Sequence record: MK310184 | Origin: Phage NC-G | Strand: one strand, 5' to 3' | DNA length: 64,000 nucleotides | Shown: piece after piece, positions 2,866-63,028 of the stretch | How positions within the stretch are numbered: the stretch's first letter is position 1 | Layout: the number at the start of each line of letters is the position of its first letter | Translations under genes and position numbers: made by a program | The notes under the pieces: model-generated | The model's input: only the letters and a program-made list of their open reading frames with translations | The model's database searches: none | Told to the model about the DNA's origin: nothing

Positions 2866-2946
2866 TCAAGGGCGTCCGAAGACGCCAGTTAATTTCAGAT
2901 TATGACGGTGCCATTGCATCACATGTTCATTATAGAAATTACTCAT
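2866..2946 (-). CDS. stp: Stp peptide (26 aa)
   Basis: [26 protein letters not shown] closely matches recalled T4 Stp [26 protein letters not shown]; ATG overlaps upstream stop. Confidence 0.65.
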
Positions 2947-3112
2947 AGATACCACACATTTTGCATAAACGTTCAAAACAAATATAACCACCACATAAAC
3001 ACATCATGACGGCAACTTTATCATTAAAGGGCATACCGAAAGCCATAAAGGCTCCGGTAACTACTAATGAAGCTAAAACAAATAGATAACCCATTACAAA
3101 GAACGTTCTCAT
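2939..3112 (-). CDS. small Cys-rich membrane protein (57 aa)
   Basis: ATG 1 nt after ndd stop (TAATATG); hydrophobic N-terminus, C-terminal [16 protein letters not shown]. Confidence 0.4.
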
Positions 3113-3113
3113 A

Positions 3114-3563
3114 TTAATAACTCTGTAGAACGAATTTAAAGTTATCAGCCAACATGCGGTTCATTTCTTCCAGGGTCTGAAGGTCGGAACTATGGTTGCG
3201 AGTGAAAGCCATTGCAATTTGACCCTTACCAAAACCTGTAGTCAGTGGTTTCATTTTAGAAGCAGGTACATAAAGAACTTCATACACTACACCGTTCACA
3301 GCCATAGTGCGAGCTGATTGAGAACGTTTCTTACGGATGTTAGCCACAATACCATCAAGACCTTGAGCTGAACGTTGGTTGCCGACATAAAAGCGAGCGG
3401 CTACGACACGAGAATCTGCTTCACCTTTAACAAAGAAGTAGAAGCCTGGCTGGGCAGCGATTTCTTTAGAAGGCTTACCATTTTGGTATTCGCCATTCTT
3501 AACATAAGCAACAGTAGTAGCACCAGCAGACAGAACGTCACGGCGAGTCATATAAGTATTCAT
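3114..3563 (-). CDS. ndd: Ndd nucleoid disruption protein
   Basis: 149 aa; [39 protein letters not shown] blocks match recalled T4 Ndd. Confidence 0.9.
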
Positions 3564-21731: not shown

Positions 21732-22253
21732 TTAATATCCATTATCCTGGCGTTCAAAATTATGTTTGTTCTTCAGGTAGTACAATTTAAAGATTTCTTC
21801 AGCAGTAAGACCAAGACCTTGGAACATATTCAGAACGAAATGGAGAATATCAATCATTTCAAATTTGATTTCAAGCTGGTCTTCAGGAGACAGTTCATCG
21901 ATACGACGATTTCGATATTCAGCATGTTGCGCCTTCCACGGCTTCCATACACTGCTGGCGGCTTTTTCACCATTGCTCATACCACCAAGTGAAGTCAGCA
22001 GTTCACGGAATTCATCATCAATATAATCTTTCTGATTACGTAGCCAATCAACAACATCACCAGCAGTGGCCAATTCATCAGGATGTTTGTTATGTTCAGG
22101 CTTGTCATTTGCCAGACGAACCTGTAAAGATTTCTGCATATCAAGCATTACCTGCAACGGGTCTTTATCTTCGTGAATAAGAGCATTAAAATAAGCTTCT
22201 TCAGCTTTATCAACACCAGCAATCAGTTGTGAACATTCGTTAAAGTGCGCCAT
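21732..22253 (-). CDS. 56: dCTPase/dUTPase (MazG-like) gp56
   Basis: track ORF trimmed to ATG 22253 (AAAGGA RBS); 173 aa; general resemblance to recalled T4 gp56. Confidence 0.8.
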   Translation of the reverse strand: MAHFNECSQLIAGVDKAEEAYFNALIHEDKDPLQVMLDMQKSLQVRLANDKPEHNKHPDELATAGDVVDWLRNQKDYIDDEFRELLTSLGGMSNGEKAASSVWKPWKAQHAEYRNRRIDELSPEDQLEIKFEMIDILHFVLNMFQGLGLTAEEIFKLYYLKNKHNFERQDNGY

Positions 22254-29018: not shown

Positions 29019-29148
29019 ACTTAATTCCTCGGTTGATAGCCTTATCGACTATCTTCCGAACTTCTCGTTTCTCGAGCCACACTAATAATAGCAAGGCTCC
29101 GAAAGAGAATAATAACAAACCTATAAAAAGCAATAGAGGACCTAGCAT
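29017..29148 (-). CDS. small membrane protein (43 aa)
   Basis: ATG overlaps upstream stop (ATGCTAG); hydrophobic MLGPLLLFIGLLLFSFGALLLLVW... Confidence 0.3.
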   Translation of the reverse strand: MLGPLLLFIGLLLFSFGALLLLVWLEKREVRKIVDKAINRGIK

Positions 29149-30035
29149 ACTACGTCCTCATAACGTGGCATTTCGTATTCAGAATGAATATTGGCACCGA
29201 AATAAATGAATTCAGCCAGACCAGGATGAAATACTAAACCTGGGTTCTCATGATAAATGATATGTGGTCTTGATTTCAGAATTTGATAATATTCAACCTT
29301 ACTCGGTTTGAATTTAATAATCTCTACATCAGGACGATAGTCTTCACGTTTAAATGAATCGTTAGGGTCGGTGATATAAAGACGAGCACCTTCAGCCGCA
29401 GCTTGGTCTACAACTCTTTCGAATTGATAACACTTATCTGAAATACGGAACGGATGGAAAATACCATCAATTTTAATAGGCGCTAGACCTTCAGAGTAAC
29501 GCTCAATTACTGCCGGATTAATTACCTTTTGGTCTACAAAAATTTTATCAGAGGATGCACCTCGTGACACCAGGACGTCTTTCTGGCATTGATTCAGCAC
29601 TGTAGTATAAAGTGAACGTTCAACTGAAGCCACATCAATATCAATGAACTCGTCGATATAATAACGAGGAACTTCAGGGTCCATTGTGATATTAAAGTTG
29701 AATTGTACAGTATGAGCGCCGTCATAACCGGTGATATCGGTTACTAGTCCTGAGCAATCATAGTATTCGATTAGAGAATCGACTACAAACTCGTTTTCAG
29801 ACCAGAAATGTTTACGGGTTTCATAAGCATTTTCTTTATACCAAAGTGGTACGAAATTCAGTTCTGGGAATAATTCAATGCATTCTTTGATATCGCTCGA
29901 ATTTCTAGGATAAGCCAGATAATCACCTGGACGAGCACGATTTAAATGGAGTTGAAAATTACCGTCCTTAAGGACGGCATATTCACCTGTTTCGTAACTA
30001 CGCATACTGAAAATAGGAACGATAAACAGACTCAT
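29142..30035 (-). CDS. hypothetical protein in beta-gt slot; candidate hmC sugar transferase
   Basis: 297-aa ORF; start overlaps stop of 42-like gene (ATGA); function inferred from position only. Confidence 0.55.
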   Translation of the reverse strand: MSLFIVPIFSMRSYETGEYAVLKDGNFQLHLNRARPGDYLAYPRNSSDIKECIELFPELNFVPLWYKENAYETRKHFWSENEFVVDSLIEYYDCSGLVTDITGYDGAHTVQFNFNITMDPEVPRYYIDEFIDIDVASVERSLYTTVLNQCQKDVLVSRGASSDKIFVDQKVINPAVIERYSEGLAPIKIDGIFHPFRISDKCYQFERVVDQAAAEGARLYITDPNDSFKREDYRPDVEIIKFKPSKVEYYQILKSRPHIIYHENPGLVFHPGLAEFIYFGANIHSEYEMPRYEDVVC

Positions 30036-30730
30036 TTCAGGAAACCTCGGACGTAGTCAAAATCACGTTCAAACACGTGTGCACTTACCATGGTGTGGGA
30101 ATACGTACCTAAACCGACACCACACTGTTCAGCAATAAATGCCATCAGTTTACCCTGCAGATAGAAATCCAGTTGCATAACAACAGCGCAGTTTTGTGAA
30201 CGCATATGGGTATGTGCATACAAACGTCCGTCACGGATATAATACGTCACCGAATCAGTGCATGGATATTCTAAGGATTCGTCAGAATCAAGGAGGGCTT
30301 GGTCTTGTTCTTGGAGAATCTGGAACACAACTCTTCGCGAGTTAGCCTTTTCTTTAAGCTCTTTAAGTAGGGCTGGGAGTTGGGCCACAATTCGAGGTCC
30401 ATAGAAAGTGTTGAAGTTTGCAGGCAATACGTCACTTTTCGGCTTATCAATGAACTTAGCAACATTAGGATATTCCTTAAATGCTTCGGCAGCGTCAGTA
30501 CCACCAGAAATCATAAATTTCCAAAAGGATTCGGCATATTCGTAACTAATACGATTGATACGTGGGTCGGTGAATTTATAGGTGCTGGCATCCAGTACTT
30601 CTATCGAAGCAGAACCAATTTCATAACAACGTCCGATACGAGAATCAACTGCAAACTGCGGAGCTTCCAGGATTTCTTCGTTCATTTGTTTAAATGCATT
30701 TTCAAAACTAACAGCGGTAATGTGTTTCAT
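30032..30730 (-). CDS. 42: dCMP hydroxymethylase-like (thymidylate synthase family), divergent gp42
   Basis: 232 aa; TS-family signature around catalytic Cys (SRR...YPCTDSV.YYIRDGR...MRSQN); ATGA coupling both sides. Confidence 0.65.
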   Translation of the reverse strand: MKHITAVSFENAFKQMNEEILEAPQFAVDSRIGRCYEIGSASIEVLDASTYKFTDPRINRISYEYAESFWKFMISGGTDAAEAFKEYPNVAKFIDKPKSDVLPANFNTFYGPRIVAQLPALLKELKEKANSRRVVFQILQEQDQALLDSDESLEYPCTDSVTYYIRDGRLYAHTHMRSQNCAVVMQLDFYLQGKLMAFIAEQCGVGLGTYSHTMVSAHVFERDFDYVRGFLK

Positions 30731-31263
30731 TTATTCACCTTATTTTCAATATATTCGTTCAGACGTTTTAATTCTACCATATCAACATTAAGCAAATTAT
30801 TATGGCCGTCATGATTTAAGATTTTAAACACGTTTTCAAAACATGTTTCGTATTGCCGGATAGTTAGGTTGAACTCATCTTTGGTTAATTTAATAAGGTC
30901 GTCTTCAAAGTCTTCATCTAATGGATTACGAGTTAAAATAACCTCGATAACATTAAATTCGGATTTAAACCCTTTCCAATCTTCCAGTTCTACATAAGGG
31001 TCCATTTCACCACGAAGGAATCCTGAGTAAACAATATTACTTGGATAACCGCGGTCAAGGATGTAGACGAAATTAGGGTCTAAAAACTTATACAGAGTTT
31101 CAACTAAGGCCTTATCGTTATCAGTTCCTAATGAAATACATTTACCATTAATCTTTTTAGGAAAATCAATAAGACGATATTTCTTATCGGATAACAGATT
31201 TTTAATTAAAGTAGACTTCCCGGAATTATCCGGGCCGTCTATAACAATGATTTTTGGATTCAT
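30727..31263 (-). CDS. P-loop kinase (nucleotide or sugar kinase family)
   Basis: 178 aa; Walker A IVIDGPDNSGKSTL; translationally coupled within cassette. Confidence 0.6.
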   Translation of the reverse strand: MNPKIIVIDGPDNSGKSTLIKNLLSDKKYRLIDFPKKINGKCISLGTDNDKALVETLYKFLDPNFVYILDRGYPSNIVYSGFLRGEMDPYVELEDWKGFKSEFNVIEVILTRNPLDEDFEDDLIKLTKDEFNLTIRQYETCFENVFKILNHDGHNNLLNVDMVELKRLNEYIENKVNK

Positions 31264-31643
31264 GGATGATAGGCCTTATAACTATCAAGAGTTCCTTCAC
31301 GAACCATTTCTTTAAAGTGGTCAGGACGGATTGCTCGGTCATCGATGATAAAAGTATAACTCGGCTTGTGTGTAAGCAAATTGTGGTATTTCAATCCAAT
31401 TTTTTCAAGGTTCTTAACCAATGCAGGAACTACTTCAACCAAGATTCGACCTGGGCCACATGAAGTCATGCCACGGGCGGTGAACAATGTAATCTCGTAC
31501 CCTTCATCATAAAGCTTATTAATCATGGACACCATTTCGGTGTCCGGTTTAAAGTTCTCATAATCACGGTCATGGTTCCAAATCGTGATTGTGTTATCGA
31601 TATCAAAACATAAATGTGGCTTATTTTCTACTCGATGCGACAT
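31260..31643 (-). CDS. HAD-superfamily phosphatase
   Basis: track ORF trimmed to ATG 31643 (TAATG coupling); motifs DIDNTIT, LFTARG, FIIDDR. Confidence 0.65.
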   Translation of the reverse strand: MSHRVENKPHLCFDIDNTITIWNHDRDYENFKPDTEMVSMINKLYDEGYEITLFTARGMTSCGPGRILVEVVPALVKNLEKIGLKYHNLLTHKPSYTFIIDDRAIRPDHFKEMVREGTLDSYKAYHP

Positions 31644-33316
31644 TAAATTTTCTTCCATTGTTTGTGGAGTTCAGTAGAACCTGTAGGTTTATATTTTACA
31701 CCAGTTTCCTGGTCAAGCAAAACCCACTTATCAGGACAACGAGTAATAATTTGAGCCGTAATAGGGTCACGAACTTCATCGACAAATTCACCAGTAATAA
31801 GCTTACGCTTACGAGGATGCCGCTTCAGCAGCACACTCAGTTGGTACAAACCGTTATAATAAGCACCTAGAGCTTTCAGAGGGTTATTCTTAAAGTAACC
31901 TGCCAGAGCCATCCAAATAACAGCAATCCAGAGCTTGTGCTTAAATGTGCACATAGGAATATCGTCTAAAGGCATAACCTTTTCAATATCAACGAACACA
32001 CGAGTCCCATTACGAGTTAAGCCACCCCATAGAGGGTCTGAGTTAAATTTGTCATAGCCATCGATAGAATAAAGCACCTTAGCTTCATCATAAATCGCAG
32101 GGCCTTTAGAACTATTACCGAAATAACCACGTGGGTCGATGATTTTAATATCACCTTCATCTGACAGCATAATATTACTGTAGTGTGGGTCGCCATGAAT
32201 AAGTTGGTACGGCTCTTTATGTTCAGACAGAATTTCTAATGCATGGCGGAGAAGTTTTTCAGGGTCGCCTACCTTGAAGTCATTAACGTGGGTAATGCCT
32301 TGTGGAGCAAAGCCTTCAATCAATCCGGCAATAGAAGCATTACGAATAAGGACCTTGTCCAATACTTCTTTCTTAACATCGGAATACCATTGCTCATCGG
32401 ACGGGTTATCGATAGTTCCACCGAATGAACGTAATGCACTAATGACCTTATAAACCATGAGGACTTTAGTTTCTTTAGACATAAACCGGTAGGCATCTGC
32501 CATGGTACGACCAAAGATACGTTCCATTTTAATGAATTCGCCTGGAGAAAAGTCTACAATGCTAGGAACGAATTCAGAATCAATAGAATTATACCAATTG
32601 ATTTCTTTAGATTGAATTTCTTTACCTAATTCGTTAGTTGGTACTTTAATGGCCAGATTCTCGGTGAACTCTAATTTATTAAATTCACGGTTAATTTCAG
32701 ATTCTTCATGGGCTTTAGCCAGTTTCAATTTGTCACCGACATCAACTACAAAGTCCAGTTTACGTTCAGTCAAATAGACCATTGAATCCAGGTTATCAGC
32801 AAGGTCTTCGCCATAATTAGAACGGTCGAAACCTGTCCAATTGGCTACCTGATACAAACCAACTACGCCACCACCCGTACCAATTTCACGTAAGTACGGT
32901 TCTTCAAATGTAAAGCGACAGTCAGTTCCATAGGTATAACAGTAGTCGTTACCCCATTCAACTTTATGACCAATAGGAATGATGTCACACCAGTTAAACA
33001 AGACATTATGGCCAATGATATCTTCGGCAATGCAATCAATAGCATGAGCTGAACCATTAGCAACGTCAACGTTACGAATAGTGAATTTAGGCTTATCACC
33101 AGTAATCATGTTAATGGATTTAATATAGCCTTTAACGAGGTCGTTAAATTTGCTGTGAATAACCAGAATAATTTCATCTGATTGGTTACTATACAAATCA
33201 TACAAATGCTTTAATACCGTATGTTGTTTGTAGTTAACCAATACCTTCGGGATTTCGTTAGTAATTGGATACAACCGTGAGCCAAGACCCGCGCCTAAAA
33301 TAACAACCTTTTTCAT
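31643..33316 (-). CDS. bifunctional sugar-1-phosphate nucleotidyltransferase / sugar kinase (APH-like)
   Basis: track ORF trimmed to ATG 33316 (GAGGAA RBS); N-terminal ILGAGLGSRL; C-terminal HGDPHYSN and IIDPRG. Confidence 0.7.
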   Translation of the reverse strand: MKKVVILGAGLGSRLYPITNEIPKVLVNYKQHTVLKHLYDLYSNQSDEIILVIHSKFNDLVKGYIKSINMITGDKPKFTIRNVDVANGSAHAIDCIAEDIIGHNVLFNWCDIIPIGHKVEWGNDYCYTYGTDCRFTFEEPYLREIGTGGGVVGLYQVANWTGFDRSNYGEDLADNLDSMVYLTERKLDFVVDVGDKLKLAKAHEESEINREFNKLEFTENLAIKVPTNELGKEIQSKEINWYNSIDSEFVPSIVDFSPGEFIKMERIFGRTMADAYRFMSKETKVLMVYKVISALRSFGGTIDNPSDEQWYSDVKKEVLDKVLIRNASIAGLIEGFAPQGITHVNDFKVGDPEKLLRHALEILSEHKEPYQLIHGDPHYSNIMLSDEGDIKIIDPRGYFGNSSKGPAIYDEAKVLYSIDGYDKFNSDPLWGGLTRNGTRVFVDIEKVMPLDDIPMCTFKHKLWIAVIWMALAGYFKNNPLKALGAYYNGLYQLSVLLKRHPRKRKLITGEFVDEVRDPITAQIITRCPDKWVLLDQETGVKYKPTGSTELHKQWKKI

Positions 33317-33375
33317 TATCTGTTCCTCAAGTGAATGTAGGTACATTATACACTATTTTTAATAAATTCTATTGC

Positions 33376-40269: not shown

Positions 40270-40461
40270 TTAATCAAAATACTCATAGACAAACCATGCT
40301 GGATTTCTATTTGACATGATTGTAACATATTCTGACTTAAAAGCATTTTGGAGATATTCCTCAGTAACAAGATGTTCATCTCCAGAGAAGTTGTTAACTA
40401 AAACATATCTCTTTATTTCTGGAACGGCCAACAAATGCTGGCCTGTTATAAAATCACTCAT
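40270..40461 (-). CDS. hypothetical protein (63 aa, 45.2 position)
   Basis: track ORF. Confidence 0.5.
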   Translation of the reverse strand: MSDFITGQHLLAVPEIKRYVLVNNFSGDEHLVTEEYLQNAFKSEYVTIMSNRNPAWFVYEYFD

Positions 40462-42140
40462 TCCATCACCGTGAATCGTCCAACTTTCTTCATTTGAAGA
40501 TGTTGGCCATAAGCTTGTGGGTCATGGTCTCGGTGAGAGATAATGAACACGTTCGTATCCTCAAGGCTATTCAAGATGGTTGCAATGCTCTTAACGCCTT
40601 CAGCGTCGGTTGCACTGTCAAATACCTCATCAAGAATCAGTGTGGATATATTAACACCTGATACCCTAGAAGCAATATCACGCCATGTAAAAAGTAGTGC
40701 GATATCAATACGTGCTTTCTCACCCTGTGAAAATGAAGCATAACTAAAGTCTTCACGTCCACGTGATTTAATCGTCTCATTGAATTCTTCGTCTAGAGTA
40801 AAGACGTAGTCCGCCTCCATAATCTTCAAATAAGAATTAATCTGCTTATTAAAGATAGGAATGTATTTCTTAATAATAGAACCTTTAATACCAGTATCCT
40901 TCAACATTTCTGTCAGAATTCCACGATGATATTTTTCCATTACCAAGGACGATTTGGTAGAGACGATTTTATCAAGCTCTGCTTGAAGCGTAGCAATCTC
41001 TTCGGCATTACTTACGAACTCAGCTGCCGCTTGGTCAATTAATATCTTAACCTTTTTGGCTTTCTCTACAGCAGTAATAGCTTGCTGCTTATGAGTAGCT
41101 ATCTGAGATTTAATAGCCAACGCTTTATTGCGTTGTTCGGTTACTTGGTCTTTAATGAGCTTGAGTTCTTGGTATTGCTCATTAATCTTATCCAAAGATT
41201 TTTGAAGCTCAAAGTTTTTATCCTTAATTTTGGTAAGGATGTTTCCATGCTCTTCTAATCCTTGCATACATGTAGGGCAGTGACCACCTGTTTCGTATAA
41301 TTTAACCACCTTTGTAAAGGTCGCCATATCATTTTTGATTGCAAATCCTTTATTACTCAGGTCACTCATGGAGTCGCTAGGGTCATCATCTACGATAACA
41401 TTGAGTAATTCATCAGTCAGAGATTCTATGCTCGCCTTCGCAGTCCTGGCTTCTTTAACGAGCTCATCATACATTAATTGTAGACGGGCAGCGTTTTCGC
41501 CAGATAATTTACGTTGACGTTCTTCGTTGTCATTATAAATTTTAATTTGTTGGGTAATAGAATCTTGCTTAACATCTATTACTTGGATTTGGCTATTAGT
41601 CTCACGAATCAAAGATTTGTTTAACTTATCCATATCCGCTAATACAGAAACCTCTAAGAGGTCTTCGACGAGTTTTCTTCTTGCAGGAGTGGATAGGCCC
41701 ATAAAAGGGGTATATCCAGCTGTGCCGAGTACGACAATTTGTTTGAAGCTTGCATAGGACATTCCGATAAGCTGTTCAAATTCCGCTTGGAAGTCTTTAC
41801 TGCTGGCAGATTCATCAAGACGTTCACCGTCACAAGAGATTTCAAAAACGTTGGGTTTTTGCCCGCGTTTGATATAGTATTCTTTGCCATCATATTCCAT
41901 CCACAGTTCGACCAAAAGGTCTTTCTTGTTACTTGAGTTAATCAACTGCCCTTTCTTAACATCACGAAAAGGCTTACCAAACAGAGCAAATGTTACAGCT
42001 TCAAGGAATGTTGATTTCCCTGCACCATTTTTACCAGTGACTAAGGTCTTTTGGACCTTATCAAGTTGGATTGTAATGGGCTGCTGCCCTACCGACATAA
42101 TATTTTTATACGTTACTTTTTTTAACTTAAAAGTCTTCAT
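40458..42140 (-). CDS. 46: recombination nuclease subunit gp46 (SbcC/Rad50-like)
   Basis: track ORF trimmed to ATG 42140; 560 aa; Walker A GKNGAGKST, long coiled coil, Cys hook CPTC. Confidence 0.9.
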   Translation of the reverse strand: MKTFKLKKVTYKNIMSVGQQPITIQLDKVQKTLVTGKNGAGKSTFLEAVTFALFGKPFRDVKKGQLINSSNKKDLLVELWMEYDGKEYYIKRGQKPNVFEISCDGERLDESASSKDFQAEFEQLIGMSYASFKQIVVLGTAGYTPFMGLSTPARRKLVEDLLEVSVLADMDKLNKSLIRETNSQIQVIDVKQDSITQQIKIYNDNEERQRKLSGENAARLQLMYDELVKEARTAKASIESLTDELLNVIVDDDPSDSMSDLSNKGFAIKNDMATFTKVVKLYETGGHCPTCMQGLEEHGNILTKIKDKNFELQKSLDKINEQYQELKLIKDQVTEQRNKALAIKSQIATHKQQAITAVEKAKKVKILIDQAAAEFVSNAEEIATLQAELDKIVSTKSSLVMEKYHRGILTEMLKDTGIKGSIIKKYIPIFNKQINSYLKIMEADYVFTLDEEFNETIKSRGREDFSYASFSQGEKARIDIALLFTWRDIASRVSGVNISTLILDEVFDSATDAEGVKSIATILNSLEDTNVFIISHRDHDPQAYGQHLQMKKVGRFTVME

Positions 42141-42390
42141 CGTTATAAGCATCCTTGATGCATGATTCAGCCATATGAATTAATGTTTCTGGAGTATCAT
42201 CTACCATTACATTAAAGCTAAATTCCACAGCCCAATCGGTAGCAACATAAACTTTAATAAGCTCGCCGGTATCACGAGTGCTCACAGCTTCAAACCAGAA
42301 CTTAATTGTACTAGGTTGGCCATCATCGTCAATAACTATACAGTCGTGTTCCAGTTCAAGTCCCGATTTTTTGAATTCATCTAAAGTCAT
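42127..42390 (-). CDS. hypothetical protein (87 aa, 46.1 position)
   Basis: track ORF. Confidence 0.5.
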   Translation of the reverse strand: MTLDEFKKSGLELEHDCIVIDDDGQPSTIKFWFEAVSTRDTGELIKVYVATDWAVEFSFNVMVDDTPETLIHMAESCIKDAYNDEDF

Positions 42391-43409
42391 CGTGTAACCT
42401 CATTATAAAGTTGTGCGGCCATAGTCTTAAGGGCTTTAACATCGTCTTCAGTGTGGCCATCAGGAAGGGCATCGATATAATCATACATCATATCCAAGAG
42501 GGACTTAACTTCATCTTCCTCTTCAGAATCATCGATATCAACGCTGTTATCTACCTTAGACACAATACGTAAAGAGTGAACAACCTTTTCAAGCTCTGAT
42601 TCGAACTTAGTAAGCCCGTCATCGATTTTATCGACTATAACACGAACTGCGATATTTGTAAAATCTTTGTAATCGATGGTTGCATTAGGATAATGAATCT
42701 TACGGTGCCAACAGGTTTCATTAATTACGAAATCCATTTTATGCGTTTCGGTATCGAAAATCCAGAAGCCACGAGGGTCGTTCTCATCACCAGCAGTTAG
42801 AGTCCATGGGGTGCCAATGTACTTGACGTTTGCTGCATCAGAAATAGTGTGGAAGTGACCAGACCAAACTTGCTTATACTTTTTAAGGAAATCAGGTTCT
42901 AAACCGTGAGATTTCATTCCTTTATAGAAATAGAAACCATTTAATTCCCAGTGACCAATACAGAAATCTGCTGTAGTATTTTTGATATGTTCCATGATAT
43001 CAGTCGTGTTTTCTTCACACATCCATGGAATCAAATCAATTTCTGTGCCATCAAAGTTAACCGTAGTAGGTTTTTCAATAACCTTGATATGGTCATATTT
43101 ACCCAGAACTTCAGAAGCCGCGTTCGGCGTCAGGGTATTTTTGTAGTGGGCATCATGGTTACCAACGACCGTATACATGGTAATGCCACTTTCTTTAAGC
43201 AAATCCGAAATATGTCTAGCAAATTCCATGCACTTATGGGTAATTGCTTTACGGACGTCAAAGATATCACCATACTGAATCCAAACCGTGATACCGTTTG
43301 CTTTAGAATAATTGATGGCGTCTTTAATGCCGGCTAATTGAATATTCTGCACCCAAGGGTCATCGTTCTTCACTCCAAGGTGCCAGTCACCTGTATTAAG
43401 AATTTTCAT
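42387..43409 (-). CDS. 47: recombination nuclease subunit gp47 (SbcD/Mre11-like)
   Basis: track ORF trimmed to ATG 43409; calcineurin-like phosphoesterase motifs (GDWHLG, GNHD, GHWE). Confidence 0.9.
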   Translation of the reverse strand: MKILNTGDWHLGVKNDDPWVQNIQLAGIKDAINYSKANGITVWIQYGDIFDVRKAITHKCMEFARHISDLLKESGITMYTVVGNHDAHYKNTLTPNAASEVLGKYDHIKVIEKPTTVNFDGTEIDLIPWMCEENTTDIMEHIKNTTADFCIGHWELNGFYFYKGMKSHGLEPDFLKKYKQVWSGHFHTISDAANVKYIGTPWTLTAGDENDPRGFWIFDTETHKMDFVINETCWHRKIHYPNATIDYKDFTNIAVRVIVDKIDDGLTKFESELEKVVHSLRIVSKVDNSVDIDDSEEEDEVKSLLDMMYDYIDALPDGHTEDDVKALKTMAAQLYNEVTR

Positions 43410-44013
43410 TGCGTATTCGTTCCCACATTTTGGAGGCTGCTTTAGAAGCAGAGCCAGGAAGTTTACCTTTGACCCACCCATCAGGAATATTAGATGGATT
43501 AATCAGTTTATGTTCTATTCCGTTATTATACCACTTCCTGCCCTTATTATGACTAGATGCTTTATAATTAGGCGAACGGCCCTCTACATATCCTTCAGGA
43601 ACCGTGGGTGCAAAGGTTTGTTCTAATGTAGCAGGATTATAGGAATGGATATATCCCTTGGCATTATGAGAACCATAAAGAGGATGCTGTTCTTTAGGTA
43701 GCGAAAGCCCAAAGAACCCTTTAGGGGCTGCAATAGACCTATTAAAGAACAGAGGGTTTTGAGCTGCATCCATTCTTAATTGGTACGTTCTTTCAGCTTC
43801 TAAAGCCTCTTCTCTTGTAGGGTGTTCACTTACAATACACGAGTCAAATAATTCAGGATGCTCTAAAAGCTCCTTGTTATAGATTTCTTTATATGCTTTA
43901 GAAAGAACACTCCCATGGTATCCTTTTAAATGCTTCTCTAAAGTAGTGGACCCTATATAAAACGGTGGAAGCTTAGTCCCGGAATATATTGTCAGGTATG
44001 TGATGTATTTCAT
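43396..44013 (-). CDS. hypothetical protein, possible GIY-YIG endonuclease (alpha-gt slot)
   Basis: 205 aa; N-terminal TIYSG..(8)..YIGST resembles GIY-YIG; C-terminal KWYNNGIE-type motif. Confidence 0.45.
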   Translation of the reverse strand: MKYITYLTIYSGTKLPPFYIGSTTLEKHLKGYHGSVLSKAYKEIYNKELLEHPELFDSCIVSEHPTREEALEAERTYQLRMDAAQNPLFFNRSIAAPKGFFGLSLPKEQHPLYGSHNAKGYIHSYNPATLEQTFAPTVPEGYVEGRSPNYKASSHNKGRKWYNNGIEHKLINPSNIPDGWVKGKLPGSASKAASKMWERIRNENS

Positions 44014-44040
44014 AGATTTATTTTATCATCCGAATATAAA

Positions 44041-44064
44041 GCAAAAAAGGAGCCTAAGCTCCTT
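44041..44064 (-). terminator. intrinsic terminator
   Basis: AAGGAGC-UUAG-GCUCCUU (44047-44064) followed by UUUUUGCUUU. Confidence 0.55.
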
Positions 44065-44227
44065 TACCAACTAATACACCATACAGAGGTTCGCGATTAG
44101 ACGTGAACTTGATTTTCTTATACGTAATAGTACCTTCATTTTCTGCTTTAATACGAGTGGCTTCAAATTGAAGTATCATCTCATTTTTGTCAGATTTAAT
44201 CTTATCAAAATCCATCGAATTCGTCAT
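44054..44227 (-). CDS. hypothetical protein (57 aa)
   Basis: ATG 44227 with AAGAGG RBS; stop inside terminator stem; below track size cut-off. Confidence 0.35.
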   Translation of the reverse strand: MTNSMDFDKIKSDKNEMILQFEATRIKAENEGTITYKKIKFTSNREPLYGVLVGKGA

Positions 44228-44316
44228 TCATAAAACCTCTTAAACTTTTTCGTATTCGTCATTCATAAGCTTAAAAATCCGGGTGTTCGTCTTTCATTAG
44301 CCACCTGTCCACGTTA

Positions 44317-44517
44317 TCATCGTTGCCACCATTTTTTAAGTTGATGTGAATCCACCCAAACCTTGGCTACAGGCTCAATCTGAAAAATTCCATCAGAATA
44401 TTGGCCCATCATTTTATATTCGGTTTCGGACTGCTTAATACAGATATTACCGTATGAGCGAAGTCTAAAGGCGGCTCCAATAAGAAGCCGTTTAAAGGGT
44501 TTATTTACTAGAGCCAT
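44317..44517 (-). CDS. hypothetical protein (66 aa)
   Basis: track ORF. Confidence 0.45.
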   Translation of the reverse strand: MALVNKPFKRLLIGAAFRLRSYGNICIKQSETEYKMMGQYSDGIFQIEPVAKVWVDSHQLKKWWQR

Positions 44518-44812
44518 TGACGATTTCCCAAATTTGTTTGCGGGTAGATTCCCACATCAATTGAACAAGTTCATCAGTAACAGGTTGACGGTAAATACCG
44601 CGTAATTTAATTAAAGCGTACTTATATGCTTCAAAGTTGTTTTCAAGTACAGCGCCTTGGGCATGGAGATTTAAACGACGGATTTCACGAGCATTCTTCT
44701 TAAGAATCTTAGCCGCTTGCGAATTAGCTTCTTTAATATTGTGCTCTTCTAAACGTTGCTGGGCTTCTTCAATTTGCTCATCAGTCAATTGAGAAATGTC
44801 ATGGCTTTGCAT
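44501..44812 (-). CDS. hypothetical protein (103 aa)
   Basis: track ORF. Confidence 0.5.
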   Translation of the reverse strand: MQSHDISQLTDEQIEEAQQRLEEHNIKEANSQAAKILKKNAREIRRLNLHAQGAVLENNFEAYKYALIKLRGIYRQPVTDELVQLMWESTRKQIWEIVNGSSK

Positions 44813-44813
44813 A

Positions 44814-45065
44814 TTAATCCTTTGGAGTCAATTCAATAGTGAAGTAGAAATTAGCGTTCTCAACATGATAACGATAATCTACGTTATTGTCAGGAGAAGT
44901 GAATTCAATATTCCTGACGTTAAGTGGGTCAATATCAATAGGAAGGCCTTTAACATCTCGTAATATCAATTTAATAAAATAAGGGAGTGCTTCGAAGTCT
45001 TCCATTCCATCTAAAAGTGGAGTGATATTAATCTGATGTTCCATATAAAAAATCCAGTTCACCAA
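44814..45065 (-). CDS. hypothetical protein (83 aa)
   Basis: track ORF; start likely internal because it overlaps gene 55 end. Confidence 0.45.
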
Positions 45066-45585
45066 CTTTAGGTTCAGCGCTCTTATCAGACCCTGGTGCT
45101 TTAGTTAAAGAGGTTTCATACTGTGTCATTTTATCGTAGATATCTTGGATAAAGGTTTCATCTGCAATACCTACCATGTCGTCGTCATTAGCGTCATAAA
45201 CGTTATGGACGAAGTAGCTGTATTTCTTTGCCATTTCTTTACGTTCTTTTTTGATACGCTGAACGAAGGCATTAAAACAAGCCATAGTGATATATGCATG
45301 TGGGTTGTCGTATTTTGTTTCGTCGAAGTTGTGAAGACCTTTAATCGAAGCTTCGATTCCATCAGCAATCATTTCTTGCTTCCAGGATTGGGTATATCCT
45401 GAGAAGTTGAAACGCTTAGAAAGGCCTTCAGCAATGAGCATAATAGCCAAGCCGATAACGTCGTTCTGACGAACTATTTTATTAGGGTCGGTATTTTCTC
45501 GGAGCTCCGTTTTCCACTGGGTAATGGCTTTAAGAAGCTCCTTATTATTTACATAGTTATTTTTAGTCAGTTTAATTTCGGTCAT
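45028..45585 (-). CDS. 55: late sigma factor gp55
   Basis: 185 aa; long blocks matching recalled T4 gp55 ([52 protein letters not shown]). Confidence 0.92.
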
Positions 45586-61758: not shown

Positions 61759-62322
61759 TTAATATACCGCCTCAAACATCTTTTTAGATTTTAGGTAATT
61801 GGCCTTTTCTAGAACCTCAGAAGCATATTTACTGCCTGCTTTGACATTCCAGCCCGCATTATAAGAAGCAATCGCTTTTCTCAGGTCACCTTTGTGAACA
61901 TCAATCCAATAAGACAGTTCAATGTAGGCCCAAGAGGCACTGTTCTGTCGTTTTTGGACCATACGAATTATTTCTTTGTCTGACATCTTCCAACCCACCT
62001 GTTGAACACGACTTCTTAACGTAGGCAAGTAATTTTGGAACATGCCATAAGCATGGTGCTTATCTTTATTTAAACCTTGATTAATTCCGGCGGATGATTC
62101 CTGCCATAGTAATCCGGCCATAATATATCCTAATCCTTTTTGATTAGGGTTTTCTTTGAACTTTCCCGACTTTTGGTATTGTTCACCGAAAGCATACGCA
62201 TAATGTAAATTATCGAGCTGGGTTTCTGTAAATACGGGTTCTGCTGCACTTACAGAAAACGAACCACACATAATAGCCGCTATTAAAGAATATTTAAGTT
62301 TTTTTAGAAAAATCATAATCAA
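61759..62322 (-). CDS. lytic transglycosylase (SLT domain) with signal peptide
   Basis: 187 aa; SLT motifs (LLWQESS, YGMFQ, SYNAG). Confidence 0.6.
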   Translation of the reverse strand: MIMIFLKKLKYSLIAAIMCGSFSVSAAEPVFTETQLDNLHYAYAFGEQYQKSGKFKENPNQKGLGYIMAGLLWQESSAGINQGLNKDKHHAYGMFQNYLPTLRSRVQQVGWKMSDKEIIRMVQKRQNSASWAYIELSYWIDVHKGDLRKAIASYNAGWNVKAGSKYASEVLEKANYLKSKKMFEAVY

Positions 62323-63028
62323 TAAGTCCTCGGTAATCTACATTAGGGAAGCCGTTCTTAATTGCGATTTTACTAAATCTTCCACACTTGAGCTTATTAT
62401 TATCTACCCATAATTTATATAATTGTGAATACATCGGTTCATGCCATATAGGGGATTTACGCAAAGAGGCTTTTTTCCTTTCTATAGTTTCTTTAGAATT
62501 TTGTATGGCTTTAAATTTTTGTCTATTTTCAGGATTTTCAAAATACTTAACCCGTTTTTCAGACATTTTAGCTTTTACTTTTGGCGAATTTAAAATTTCT
62601 TTGAGCCGTTCTTTAGAGCCTTCCTTTTCAAAATACTTTATTAAAGCCATTGAATGAGCAGCCCTATTTTCCTTTTTAGAGAAAAATAAAATTTTATTAA
62701 TAGATTGCAATTTTGAAAATGATTCTTTAGCCAACTTATAATTTTCAGAATCTACAAAATAAGACCTTTGTTTTGAATTTGAAGTAGAGCTCATATTTAA
62801 CCAGGCAAAATTCAACCCATAGTGGTTTGGATTAGCTTTGGCTAGATACATATGGGCCAAATAATGTTCATCAGCATAAAGCTCAACTAAATTGTCTTGA
62901 GTGTCAGGACCACCAACACAACTCGGAATTATATGATGCTTTTCTGTATAGGCGTCATTAGGTGTATCCCTAGATAAGGCCGCATTTATTATTTTATAGT
63001 AGTCATATGGATATTTTATAGTTTCCAT
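62294..63028 (-). CDS. HNH homing endonuclease
   Basis: 244 aa; HNH motif EKHHIIPSCVGGPDTQDNLVELYADEHYLAHM; basic repeat-rich C-terminus. Confidence 0.7.
   Translation of the reverse strand: METIKYPYDYYKIINAALSRDTPNDAYTEKHHIIPSCVGGPDTQDNLVELYADEHYLAHMYLAKANPNHYGLNFAWLNMSSTSNSKQRSYFVDSENYKLAKESFSKLQSINKILFFSKKENRAAHSMALIKYFEKEGSKERLKEILNSPKVKAKMSEKRVKYFENPENRQKFKAIQNSKETIERKKASLRKSPIWHEPMYSQLYKLWVDNNKLKCGRFSKIAIKNGFPNVDYRGLIDYDFSKKT

Follow-up and report, generated by a model that had tools for sequence, protein, structure and literature searches.

A probable Seg-type homing endonuclease gene beside gene 47 in a JS98-type T4-like phage

An open reading frame (ORF) of 205 amino acids located directly in front of gene 47, between a-gt.2 and gene 47 (43396–44013, minus strand), probably encodes a free-standing homing endonuclease of the T4 Seg (GIY-YIG) type. 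Positions are those of the 64-kb window, that is, of the whole stretch of DNA analyzed. The phage is a JS98-type (Dhakavirus) T4-like phage, and for T4-like phages such an endonuclease is an ordinary mobile element. The homing endonuclease gene (HEG) is carried by some close relatives and missing from others. It is also in complete linkage with a diverged form of the first ∼260 nt of gene 47, which, as judged by comparison of related loci, is the likely target gene.

The interval between gene 55 and gene 47

The interval is bordered upstream by gene 55 (late sigma factor; 45028–45585, minus strand; phrog_234, E = 1.1e-68). Gene 47 (42387–43409, minus strand) encodes a 340-aa Mre11/SbcD-like recombination nuclease subunit (phrog_100, E = 8.4e-137; Pfam Metallophos, E = 1.8e-08). 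A longer, mechanically defined ORF of 364 aa (start at 43481) was considered for gene 47 and rejected: in every relative the gene begins at the ATG corresponding to 43409. The 3′-end of the endonuclease ORF runs 14 nt into gene 47, in a different frame (43396–43409, minus strand); the overlap is annotated likewise in QL01 and similar overlaps are found in G28, EI and L9-6.

A preliminary description of this DNA had reported four small ORFs and a terminator, and both are present upstream of the endonuclease gene. Profile matches and annotation identify the ORFs as the conserved T4-type genes a-gt.5 to a-gt.2, not chance ORFs. All are on the minus strand. The a-gt.5 homologue (76 aa; 44814–45044; DUF5491, E = 2.3e-14; phrog_1169) overlaps the end of gene 55, with its ATG placed at 45044 as in the QL01 and JS98 annotation. 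The others are a-gt.4 (103 aa; 44501–44812; DUF2654, E = 4e-23; phrog_951), a-gt.3 (66 aa; 44317–44517; phrog_1648, E = 2.9e-29; JS98 annotation) and a-gt.2 (57 aa; 44054–44227; DUF5486, E = 6.6e-19; phrog_2140; JS98 annotation). The intrinsic-terminator-like hairpin with T run (44046–44065, minus strand) lies over the a-gt.2 stop codon; it has an 8-bp stem with 4 G-C pairs and the tail TTTGCTTTAT, and is kept in HEG-plus and HEG-minus relatives alike.

A pattern scan revealed a sequence resembling a T4 MotA-type middle promoter (TGCTTTA – 11 nt – TAAAAT; 44020–44043, minus strand), which is also found in the HEG-less phages JS98 and WG01; its promoter function is predicted from the T4 middle-promoter consensus. 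Matches to the pattern are enriched in the window (14 found versus 3.5 expected, with none of 100 shuffles reaching 14) and the minus strand holds 10 of them. A sigma-70 promoter scan showed no enrichment (6 found versus 8.7 expected); the T4 late-promoter motif TATAAATA gave 3 matches in the window, fewer than chance, and none in or near the interval. The endonuclease ATG stands 7 nt past the −10 hexamer and the ORF lacks a Shine-Dalgarno sequence. With the ribosome-binding site missing and the transcript predicted to start at about the AUG, the gene is probably expressed weakly, at middle or late times. Free-standing endonuclease genes of T4 typically have middle or late promoters and poor ribosome-binding sites (PMC2988022).

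Fold and family membership

The existence of 250 database homologues (best E = 9e-106), together with a match to phrog_10820 (E = 3.6e-92), places the 205-aa ORF far beyond chance; phrog_314, ‘homing endonuclease’, is matched at E = 6.8e-16. A tblastn search of the 64-kb window for a second copy matched only the gene itself. The N-terminus reads MKYITYLTIY-SGTKLPPF-YIGS: the GIY-(8)-YIG-like beginning originally ascribed to this ORF is thus present, literally as IY-(8)-YIG.

The fold predicted by AF2 (pLDDT 84 overall, 92–98 over residues 1–90) is that of a GIY-YIG nuclease. Strands 3–10 and 18–24, helices 25–29 and 39–51, strand 56–64 and helix 67–80 give, in the model, a three-stranded sheet flanked by helices, the beta-beta-alpha-alpha-beta-alpha core that the GIY-YIG superfamily requires. 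The top three Foldseek matches are the I-TevI catalytic domain (probability 0.98–1.00) and the top PDB structure matches are exclusively GIY-YIG nucleases. The predicted catalytic domain covers residues ∼1–100 (43714–44013, minus strand) and includes the conserved positions Y6, Y10, Y19-I20-G21, K27, Y32-x-G34, E74 and N91. Its motifs take the form ITY(4–6)LTIY(10)...FYIG(18–21). The first, GIY, is divergent; YIG, Y6 and Y10 are each invariant in all 43 family sequences, as are E74 and N91.

Pfam GIY-YIG (PF01541) scores 16.8 bits on the protein (E = 0.0084), under the gathering cut-off of 22.6, and matches 22 of the 43 family members weakly (best E = 5.5e-4). Neither the single protein nor the family profile found anything relevant in sequence searches of the PDB, and an NCBIfam search returned nothing. 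The sub-threshold score is a sensitivity limit of the Pfam model, overridden by the fold and by profile–profile evidence: HHalign of the family profile against T4 SegA–F gives a probability of 96.9% (E = 1.8e-10) over 114 columns, and pairs Y6, YIG, GY-x-GS, E74 and N91 with Seg invariants. Fold search and profile comparison therefore bear out the GIY-YIG homing endonuclease first proposed here. Of the two domains for which a profile search had been suggested, GIY-YIG was recovered through the Seg profile; NUMOD domains (NUMOD1, NUMOD3, NUMOD4), sought in the protein by Pfam search, were absent.

NUMOD3 does occur in 23 of 43 relatives that have only the N-terminal domain in common with the 205-aa protein. 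Fusion of this domain to NUMOD3, as seen in many phage proteins, is the usual modular architecture of homing endonucleases.

The family carries a different label in the databases: phrog_10820 is named ‘HNH endonuclease’, and this is also the RefSeq product name in QL01, G28 and others. That the protein is in fact an HNH enzyme we regard as scarcely credible, for its predicted fold is GIY-YIG, its profile match is to the Seg family, no HNH Pfam model matches even at E ≤ 1, and neither a His-Asn-His nor a Cys motif is present. The label appears to be a propagated annotation error.

By BLASTP the closest T4 relative is SegE, aligned over 194 of the 205 residues, both C-terminal repeats included (E = 1e-9, 29% identity). 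The two proteins are both 205 aa long, with a GIY-YIG N-terminal domain bearing a GY-x-GS motif and two C-terminal repeats of the form W/Y-x-N-N-G...P-[DE]-G-[WF]-x-K-G; each is encoded just ahead of a conserved gene of DNA metabolism that is read in the same direction and, in the case of SegE, is the target. In the 205-aa protein the repeats are the beta-hairpins IHSYNP...VPEGYVEGR and KWYNNG...IPDGWVKGK (model strands 122–125/132–135 and 160–163/168–171); the SegE counterparts in the BLASTP alignment are CYTNGTK...VPEGFVKGM and FWVNNGA...IPDGFIKGR. They lie in a C-terminal module (residues ∼118–185; 43459–43662, minus strand) that presumably binds DNA. The KWYNNG-type motif pointed out in the preliminary description is there (GRKWYNNGIEHK, residues 158–169) and is common to this protein, T4 SegE and SegB.

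The loci of the two genes differ: segE lies between inh and uvsW, and its product cuts the uvsW gene of phage RB30 (Kadyrov et al. 1997, cited in PMC2988022), whereas the present gene is at gene 47. Compared with the T4 Seg proteins, the beta1-beta2 hairpin is 3 residues longer (LPP) and the Seg-invariant His after YIG is missing. Pfam SegE_GIY-YIG (PF19835) does not match the protein at E ≤ 1 and matches 3 of the 43 family members weakly. Orthology with SegE was considered and rejected: the missing PF19835 match, the locus at gene 47 rather than uvsW and the 29% identity point to a paralogous lineage. Compared with I-TevI (catalytic domain, PDB 1LN0/1MK0), the zinc finger and helix-turn-helix DNA-binding region are lacking and the C-terminal module is of another kind; moreover, the gene is not intron-encoded and Lys27 replaces Arg27.

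This last substitution bears on activity. Of the 43 sequences, 30 have K at position 27, 10 have R and 3 have N. This helix-1 position is equated, by spacing only and not by superposed coordinates, with R27, the Arg that I-TevI cannot do without. The T4 Seg enzymes likewise have no clear Arg at this place, and it is by analogy with them that catalytic competence is assumed here. An alternative is that the gene is a relic, catalytically dead and drifting to loss: in addition to the non-canonical Lys, the Pfam score is sub-threshold, the Shine-Dalgarno sequence is absent, and related alleles show C-terminal rearrangements (KIT01 and 005) or apparent frameshifts (KPV15). We nonetheless consider decay improbable. 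The ORF is full-length and retains all 16 family-invariant residues; Lys or Arg is conserved at position 27 in 40 of 43 sequences; and dN/dS (0.06 versus QL01, 0.04 versus the 005 allele, 0.18 versus Klebsiella phage EI) is incompatible with neutral decay. By these measures the gene is intact and under purifying selection.

A polymorphic cassette and a divergent tract in gene 47

Comparison of the interval between genes 47 and 55 among close relatives revealed a presence/absence polymorphism, as anticipated by the suggestion that a mobile-element insertion site might lie here. Break points from blastn and the junction sequences define a polymorphic cassette of 607 bp (43410–44016, minus strand), which begins 3 nt past the −10 hexamer and is present in the phage under study, QL01, IME08 and IME540. 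JS98, WG01 and most Dhakaviruses have in its place 157 bp containing the small gene 47.1; judged from these alignments, the endonuclease cassette replaces 47.1. The slot survey comprised 35 loci, and the annotation of JS98, WG01 and QL01 was also compared. Of about 54 Dhakavirus-level records, about 12 contain a copy of the endonuclease at ≥80% identity. In JS98 and JS10, the count of homing endonuclease genes given by Petrov et al. (2010; PMC2993671) is zero.

The polymorphism extends into gene 47. Fixed differences between HEG-plus and HEG-minus phages number 28 in nt 1–260 of the gene and 0 in nt 301–1020, with none in ∼1 kb upstream; they are densest at nt 51–96 (43314–43359). Identity is 73–88% per 60-nt bin and jumps to 95–100% past nt 300, while dS is 0.88–1.06 in the divergent part versus 0.19–0.28 in the rest of the gene, an increase of 4–5 fold. 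The divergent tract (43150–43409, minus strand) looks like a one-sided co-conversion tract and suggests that the cleavage or recognition site is probably in the 5′-part of gene 47.

Homing would account for this pattern as follows. In a mixed infection the enzyme would cut the DNA of a HEG-free relative inside the first ∼300 nt of gene 47 or close to them; the cut would be resected and then repaired from the endonuclease-carrying genome. Along with the endonuclease gene, repair would carry over the neighboring 5′-part of gene 47, giving localized marker exclusion with co-conversion, and the diverged 5′-segment in carriers would be a cleavage-resistant allele. That the fixed differences are confined to the 5′-tract of gene 47 and linked to the endonuclease is as homing predicts.

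Localized marker exclusion with co-conversion has been shown for T4 SegE/uvsW, SegF/gene 56 and SegG/gene 32. The present gene resembles the SegF and SegG systems: in each, a free-standing gene lies beside a conserved gene, is sporadic among relatives, and is co-inherited with a flanking tract (here the first ∼260 nt of gene 47). For SegF and SegG the cleavage sites and exclusion were measured, whereas at gene 47 they are deduced from comparative sequence alone.

Two observations bear on the nature of the tract itself. Among 35 related loci no donor closer than 73% was found for the diverged segment. In addition, gene 47 differs little between Tequatrovirus G28 (HEG-plus) and T4 (HEG-minus), with 93% identity in the first 60 nt and 90–100% after, which means that the divergent tract is not universal. 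Instead of being a target-immunity allele, the diverged segment could be the trace of an old recombination junction.

A further possibility is that the protein is a domesticated nuclease or DNA-binding protein, no longer mobile and kept for the benefit of the phage, through exclusion of competitors without homing, regulation of gene 47, or provision of the gene 47 translation-initiation region. Strong purifying selection accords with such a role, and the cassette does hold the sequences directly upstream of gene 47, which is essential. In distant genera, orthologues with only 47–68% amino acid identity still lie at this position and overlap the beginning of gene 47, perhaps a sign of long vertical residence. 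Yet within a single genus the gene is sporadic, in flanks that are 92–97% identical and with the alternative allele 47.1 intact; the tightly linked tract fits homing; and most phages thrive without the gene. We therefore think domestication unlikely, and favor a homing endonuclease that is still mobile.

Glucosyltransferases and distribution among T4-like phages

In T4 the space between a-gt.2 and gene 47 is occupied by mobB, a-gt and 47.1. The preliminary description had the endonuclease filling the alpha-glucosyltransferase slot: the position is correct, in that the gene lies in the T4 a-gt interval, but it is 47.1 and not a-gt that has been replaced. The gene had further been taken as support for loss of the glucosylation system, and this does not hold. 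Neither T4 a-gt nor b-gt has a tblastn match in the 64-kb window at E ≤ 1e-3, which, with the shared interval, might suggest that the endonuclease displaced a-gt. Such displacement is very improbable: all Dhakaviruses checked are without a-gt, whether HEG-plus or HEG-minus, the HEG-less ones having only 47.1 in the slot, while a-gt and the endonuclease gene are neighbors in Tequatrovirus vB_EcoM-G28 and Klebsiella phage KPV15. Lack of glucosyltransferases was, moreover, already known as a genus-level trait in JS98-type phages (PMC2993671). Their absence is accounted for by an RB69-like cytosine-modification cluster (29142–33346; PMC13326640). On the comparative evidence, the presence of the endonuclease and the absence of a-gt are coincidental, the one not being the cause of the other.

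T4 mobB lies in the same hypervariable interval between genes 55 and 47, between a-gt and a-gt.2. It belongs to the HNH superfamily and occupies another sub-slot than the 205-aa endonuclease; its presence marks the interval as a recurrent landing place for endonuclease genes.

The endonuclease also adjoins gene 47 in Tequatrovirus G28, Marfavirus EI, Mosigvirus AV115, Biquartavirus L9-6 and KPV15. Counting Dhakavirus, this site thus holds orthologues in no fewer than six T4-like lineages (five named genera, and the KPV15-type Klebsiella phages). An endonuclease at gene 47 is not mentioned in the reviews of Edgell (2010; PMC2988022) or Petrov (2010; PMC2993671), and the literature, searched for seg names of later date (segH to segK), yielded unrelated papers only. 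It is conceivable, though we hold it only tentatively, that these genes form a distinct, unnamed Seg lineage specialized on gene 47, spread over at least six lineages and characterized by Lys for Arg, an ORF fused into the start of the host gene and a predicted near-leaderless mRNA from the upstream middle promoter.

The practical value of these findings is modest, and knowledge of how homing endonucleases work is unchanged by them. They do correct the labels ‘HNH endonuclease’ and ‘hypothetical protein’ attached to a protein family that spans well over a hundred phage genomes, and remove a false link between the endonuclease and the missing glucosyltransferase. The clean, natural, one-sided tract (28 differences versus 0) could be used to map the target site of a Seg-type enzyme, and as an example of co-conversion it could help in studying marker exclusion among the Dhakavirus and Tequatrovirus phages used in therapy, where cocktails often combine them. 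If a Seg lineage specialized on gene 47 does exist, then it would target the gene that encodes the very Mre11-like nuclease on which the break resection of homing depends.

Locus and reading frames upstream of gene 47

All genes of the 3.4-kb region around the endonuclease lie on the minus strand, in the transcription order gene 55 (45028-45585), a-gt.5 (DUF5491; 44814-45044), a-gt.4 (DUF2654; 44501-44812), a-gt.3 (phrog_1648; 44317-44517), a-gt.2 (DUF5486; 44054-44227), the 205-aa ORF (43396-44013), gene 47 (42387-43409), 46.2 (42127-42390) and gene 46 (40458-42152). Dhakavirus is a genus in the Straboviridae, Tevenvirinae. Across this region the Escherichia phages QL01, IME540 and IME08 are 94-95% identical to the window; JS98, WG01, Bp7 and other Dhakavirus members are 92-94% identical. 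The four small ORFs of the preliminary description correspond to conserved genes of T4 type, a-gt.5 to a-gt.2, and its terminator is a hairpin plus T run (44046-44065) lying over the a-gt.2 stop codon. The longest mechanical ORF would start gene 47 at 43481, a start that we rejected: every relative uses the ATG at 43409, and the 205-aa ORF therefore overlaps gene 47 by 14 nt.

Two further differences among relatives were observed nearby. A separate mosaic block spanning a-gt.5/a-gt.4 (44556-45052) matches QL01, IME341 and vB_EcoM_005 at 99-100% identity but JS98, IME281 and the compared locus L014 at only 49-81%, a pattern independent of endonuclease presence. About 31 nt between a-gt.3 and a-gt.2 (within 44256-44355) are present in the window and JS98 and missing from QL01, IME341 and vB_EcoM_005.

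A Seg-type GIY-YIG protein

As the preliminary description had it, the ORF opens with a GIY-YIG-like motif (MKYITYLTIY-(8)-YIGS) and contains KWYNNGIE. Sequence-only evidence for its identity is nevertheless weak: the Pfam GIY-YIG match, at 16.8 bits, falls below the cut-off of 22.6, and NCBIfam and PDB sequence searches gave no match. PHROGs places the protein firmly in phrog_10820 ('HNH endonuclease'; E 3.6e-92), with a weaker match to phrog_314 ('homing endonuclease'). A database search returned 250 homologues, the full-length ones 45-87% identical; many more have only the first ~115 residues in common, with NUMOD3 domains behind. In a 43-member alignment of the family the invariant residues are Y6, T8, Y10, G12, P16, Y19-I20-G21, Y32, G34, S38, E48, F56, A70, E74 and N91. 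The AlphaFold2 model built from this alignment has high confidence (pLDDT 92-98) for the first 90 residues, and its best structural matches are all GIY-YIG nucleases, the top three from Foldseek against the PDB being the I-TevI catalytic domain. Profile-profile comparison with T4 SegA-F (96.9% probability, E 1.8e-10) matches Y6, YIG, GY-x-GS, E74 and N91 to Seg invariants. The closest T4 protein is SegE (BLASTP E 1e-9, 29% identity over 194 residues), which is also 205 aa long and has both C-terminal repeats in common with the window protein (...VPEGYVEGR in the window protein, ...VPEGFVKGM in SegE; KWYNNGIEHKLINPSNIPDGWVKGK and FWVNNGAINKLIQPDGIIPDGFIKGR, respectively).

Fold, profile matches and likeness to SegE together identify the protein as a Seg-type GIY-YIG enzyme, with the caveat that the helix-1 basic residue at the index of I-TevI R27 is Lys here (K in 30, R in 10 and N in 3 of the 43 members); on the same grounds we regard the 'HNH' label of phrog_10820 as an annotation error. 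The SegE-specific Pfam model did not match the protein, which we treat as a paralogous Seg lineage rather than a SegE orthologue.

Selection points to a living gene: dN/dS is 0.06 against QL01 (dS 0.32), 0.04 against the vB_EcoM_005 allele (shared part only) and 0.18 against Klebsiella phage EI. As to expression, the shared upstream sequence runs from the terminator hairpin through TGCTTTA and 11 nt to TAAAAT, which fits the T4 MotA-dependent middle-promoter consensus; the window has 14 occurrences of this pattern (3.5 expected), 10 of them on the coding strand. The endonuclease ATG lies 7 nt past the -10 hexamer, so that a transcript from this putative promoter would begin at about the AUG, and no Shine-Dalgarno sequence precedes the ATG; translation may thus be weak or conditional. 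Such translation is typical of the free-standing endonuclease genes of T4, whose promoters are mostly middle or late (PMC2988022).

The variable slot and glucosylation

The alignment to JS98 and WG01 breaks exactly at the gene 47 ATG (43409) and at 44016/44017, so that the cassette starts 3 nt past the -10 hexamer. Between these points the 607-bp cassette of the window is replaced in both phages by 157 bp encoding gp47.1 (47 aa, a predicted membrane protein) with its own GAGGAG ribosome-binding site. Petrov et al. (2010; PMC2993671) counted zero homing endonuclease genes in JS98 and JS10. Copies at ≥80% identity are found in ~12 of ~54 phage records whose identity is of Dhakavirus level. A third allele (KIT01, LQ5, SHP1 and vB_EcoM_005; 251-256 aa as annotated) encodes the same endonuclease until residue ~165, then a different, longer C-terminus. 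In KIT01 (locus L010, 1407-2177) and vB_EcoM_005 (L011, 1407-2162) identity is 82-85% over the aligned region and higher until residue ~165; the sequence past that point is unrelated, bears a further WxNDG-type repeat, and may represent a switch to another DNA-binding module and another target. The KIT01 ORF is annotated without its first 28 residues. Dhakavirus vB_EcoM_FB, an Escherichia phage, is without the gene-47 endonuclease; an extra 231-aa ORF that lies directly before gene 55 and overlaps it (L058, 2977-3672) may be another inserted element.

Orthologues with 47-68% identity lie directly upstream of gene 47, mostly overlapping it, in five phages: Tequatrovirus G28, Marfavirus EI, Mosigvirus AV115, Aeromonas Biquartavirus L9-6 and KPV15. 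Annotation suggests the same position in Erwinia FBB1, Salmonella SEA1 and Klebsiella SmallBear, whereas in a Rhizobium phage a relative with 33% identity adjoins nrdD. In Klebsiella phage KPV15 the match is in two pieces (L039, ~2907-3560), and the gene 47 start as translated meets stop codons after ~38 codons; a frameshift, an error in sequencing or decay of the copy could explain this.

The T4 order is 55, a-gt.5, a-gt.4, a-gt.3, a-gt.2, mobB, a-gt, 47.1, 47. Across 35 gene-47 loci from IMG/VR the backbone (55, a-gt.5 to a-gt.2, 47) is fixed, and the slot directly upstream of gene 47 holds nothing, 47.1, a-gt + 47.1, mobB + a-gt + 47.1, a-gt alone, the endonuclease alone, or a-gt + endonuclease. 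The last arrangement is that of vB_EcoM-G28, where a-gt is followed by a 62%-identical endonuclease overlapping gene 47, and similarly of KPV15. Since a-gt is also missing from Dhakaviruses without the endonuclease, and G28 and KPV15 have both genes, the endonuclease replaces 47.1, not a-gt. The preliminary description, which placed it in the alpha-glucosyltransferase slot, was thus right as to position within the T4 a-gt interval but not as to the gene replaced, and the endonuclease is uninformative about the loss of glucosylation that it was thought to support; the link is coincidental.

Neither a-gt nor b-gt was found in the window, and JS98-type phages were noted in 2010 to be without glucosyltransferases (PMC2993671). 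Their lack relates instead to an RB69-like cytosine-modification cluster (29142-33346, minus strand) that takes the place of T4 b-gt and gene 42, with uvsX on one side and imm on the other. It includes, on the same strand, a thymidylate-synthase homologue (30032-30730; Pfam Thymidylat_synt, 3.3e-13; only 24% identity to T4 gp42), a kinase-like ORF (30727-31263) and a 567-aa nucleotidyltransferase/APH (phosphotransferase) fusion (31643-33346). RB69 gp48 makes 5-hydroxy-dCMP, and an arabinosylated 5-hydroxycytosine pathway is predicted in Dhakaviruses also (2026 paper, PMC13326640). Elsewhere in the window, gene 56 (dCTPase; 21735-22253) is present at 72% identity to its T4 counterpart, and tblastn found no T4 dam homologue in the 64 kb; in JS98, likewise, gene 56 is followed directly by gene 61.

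Divergence of gene 47 beside the cassette

Gene 47 was compared between two genomes with the endonuclease (the window and QL01) and four without (JS98, IME341, WG01 and L014). All 28 fixed differences between these groups fall within nt 1-260; nt 301-1020 are free of them, as is the ~1 kb upstream of the cassette save for the junction base. Identity per bin between the groups is 73-88% in the first 300 nt and 95-100% thereafter, against 88-100% throughout among genomes without the endonuclease; dS is 0.88-1.06 in codons 1-100 and 0.19-0.28 elsewhere in the gene. Beside the variant allele (vB_EcoM_005, KIT01) the first 360 nt are still more divergent (47-72%), followed by 97% identity. The corresponding contrast in Tequatrovirus, between G28 and T4, is weak.

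Divergence limited to the 5' part of gene 47 would be expected if the endonuclease gene moved together with a resistant version of its adjacent target, and the cassette carries a clear comparative signature of co-conversion. Crossovers would have been resolved inside gene 47 on one side and in the conserved terminator/promoter sequence on the other. Differences are densest at gene 47 nt 51-96 (window 43314-43359), our best guess, and only a guess, for the recognition region.

The window probably holds a second free-standing homing endonuclease gene, a 244-aa ORF (62294-63028, minus strand) with an HNH motif (TEKHHIIP...DNLVELYADEHYLAH) and tblastn ties to T4 MobB (58% across the motif) and to the C-terminal region of SegF.

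In sum, the ORF before gene 47 is a real, intact and uncharacterised Seg-type GIY-YIG homing endonuclease gene occupying the 47.1 slot. Enzymes of this type are well known, and the window gene adds one member.
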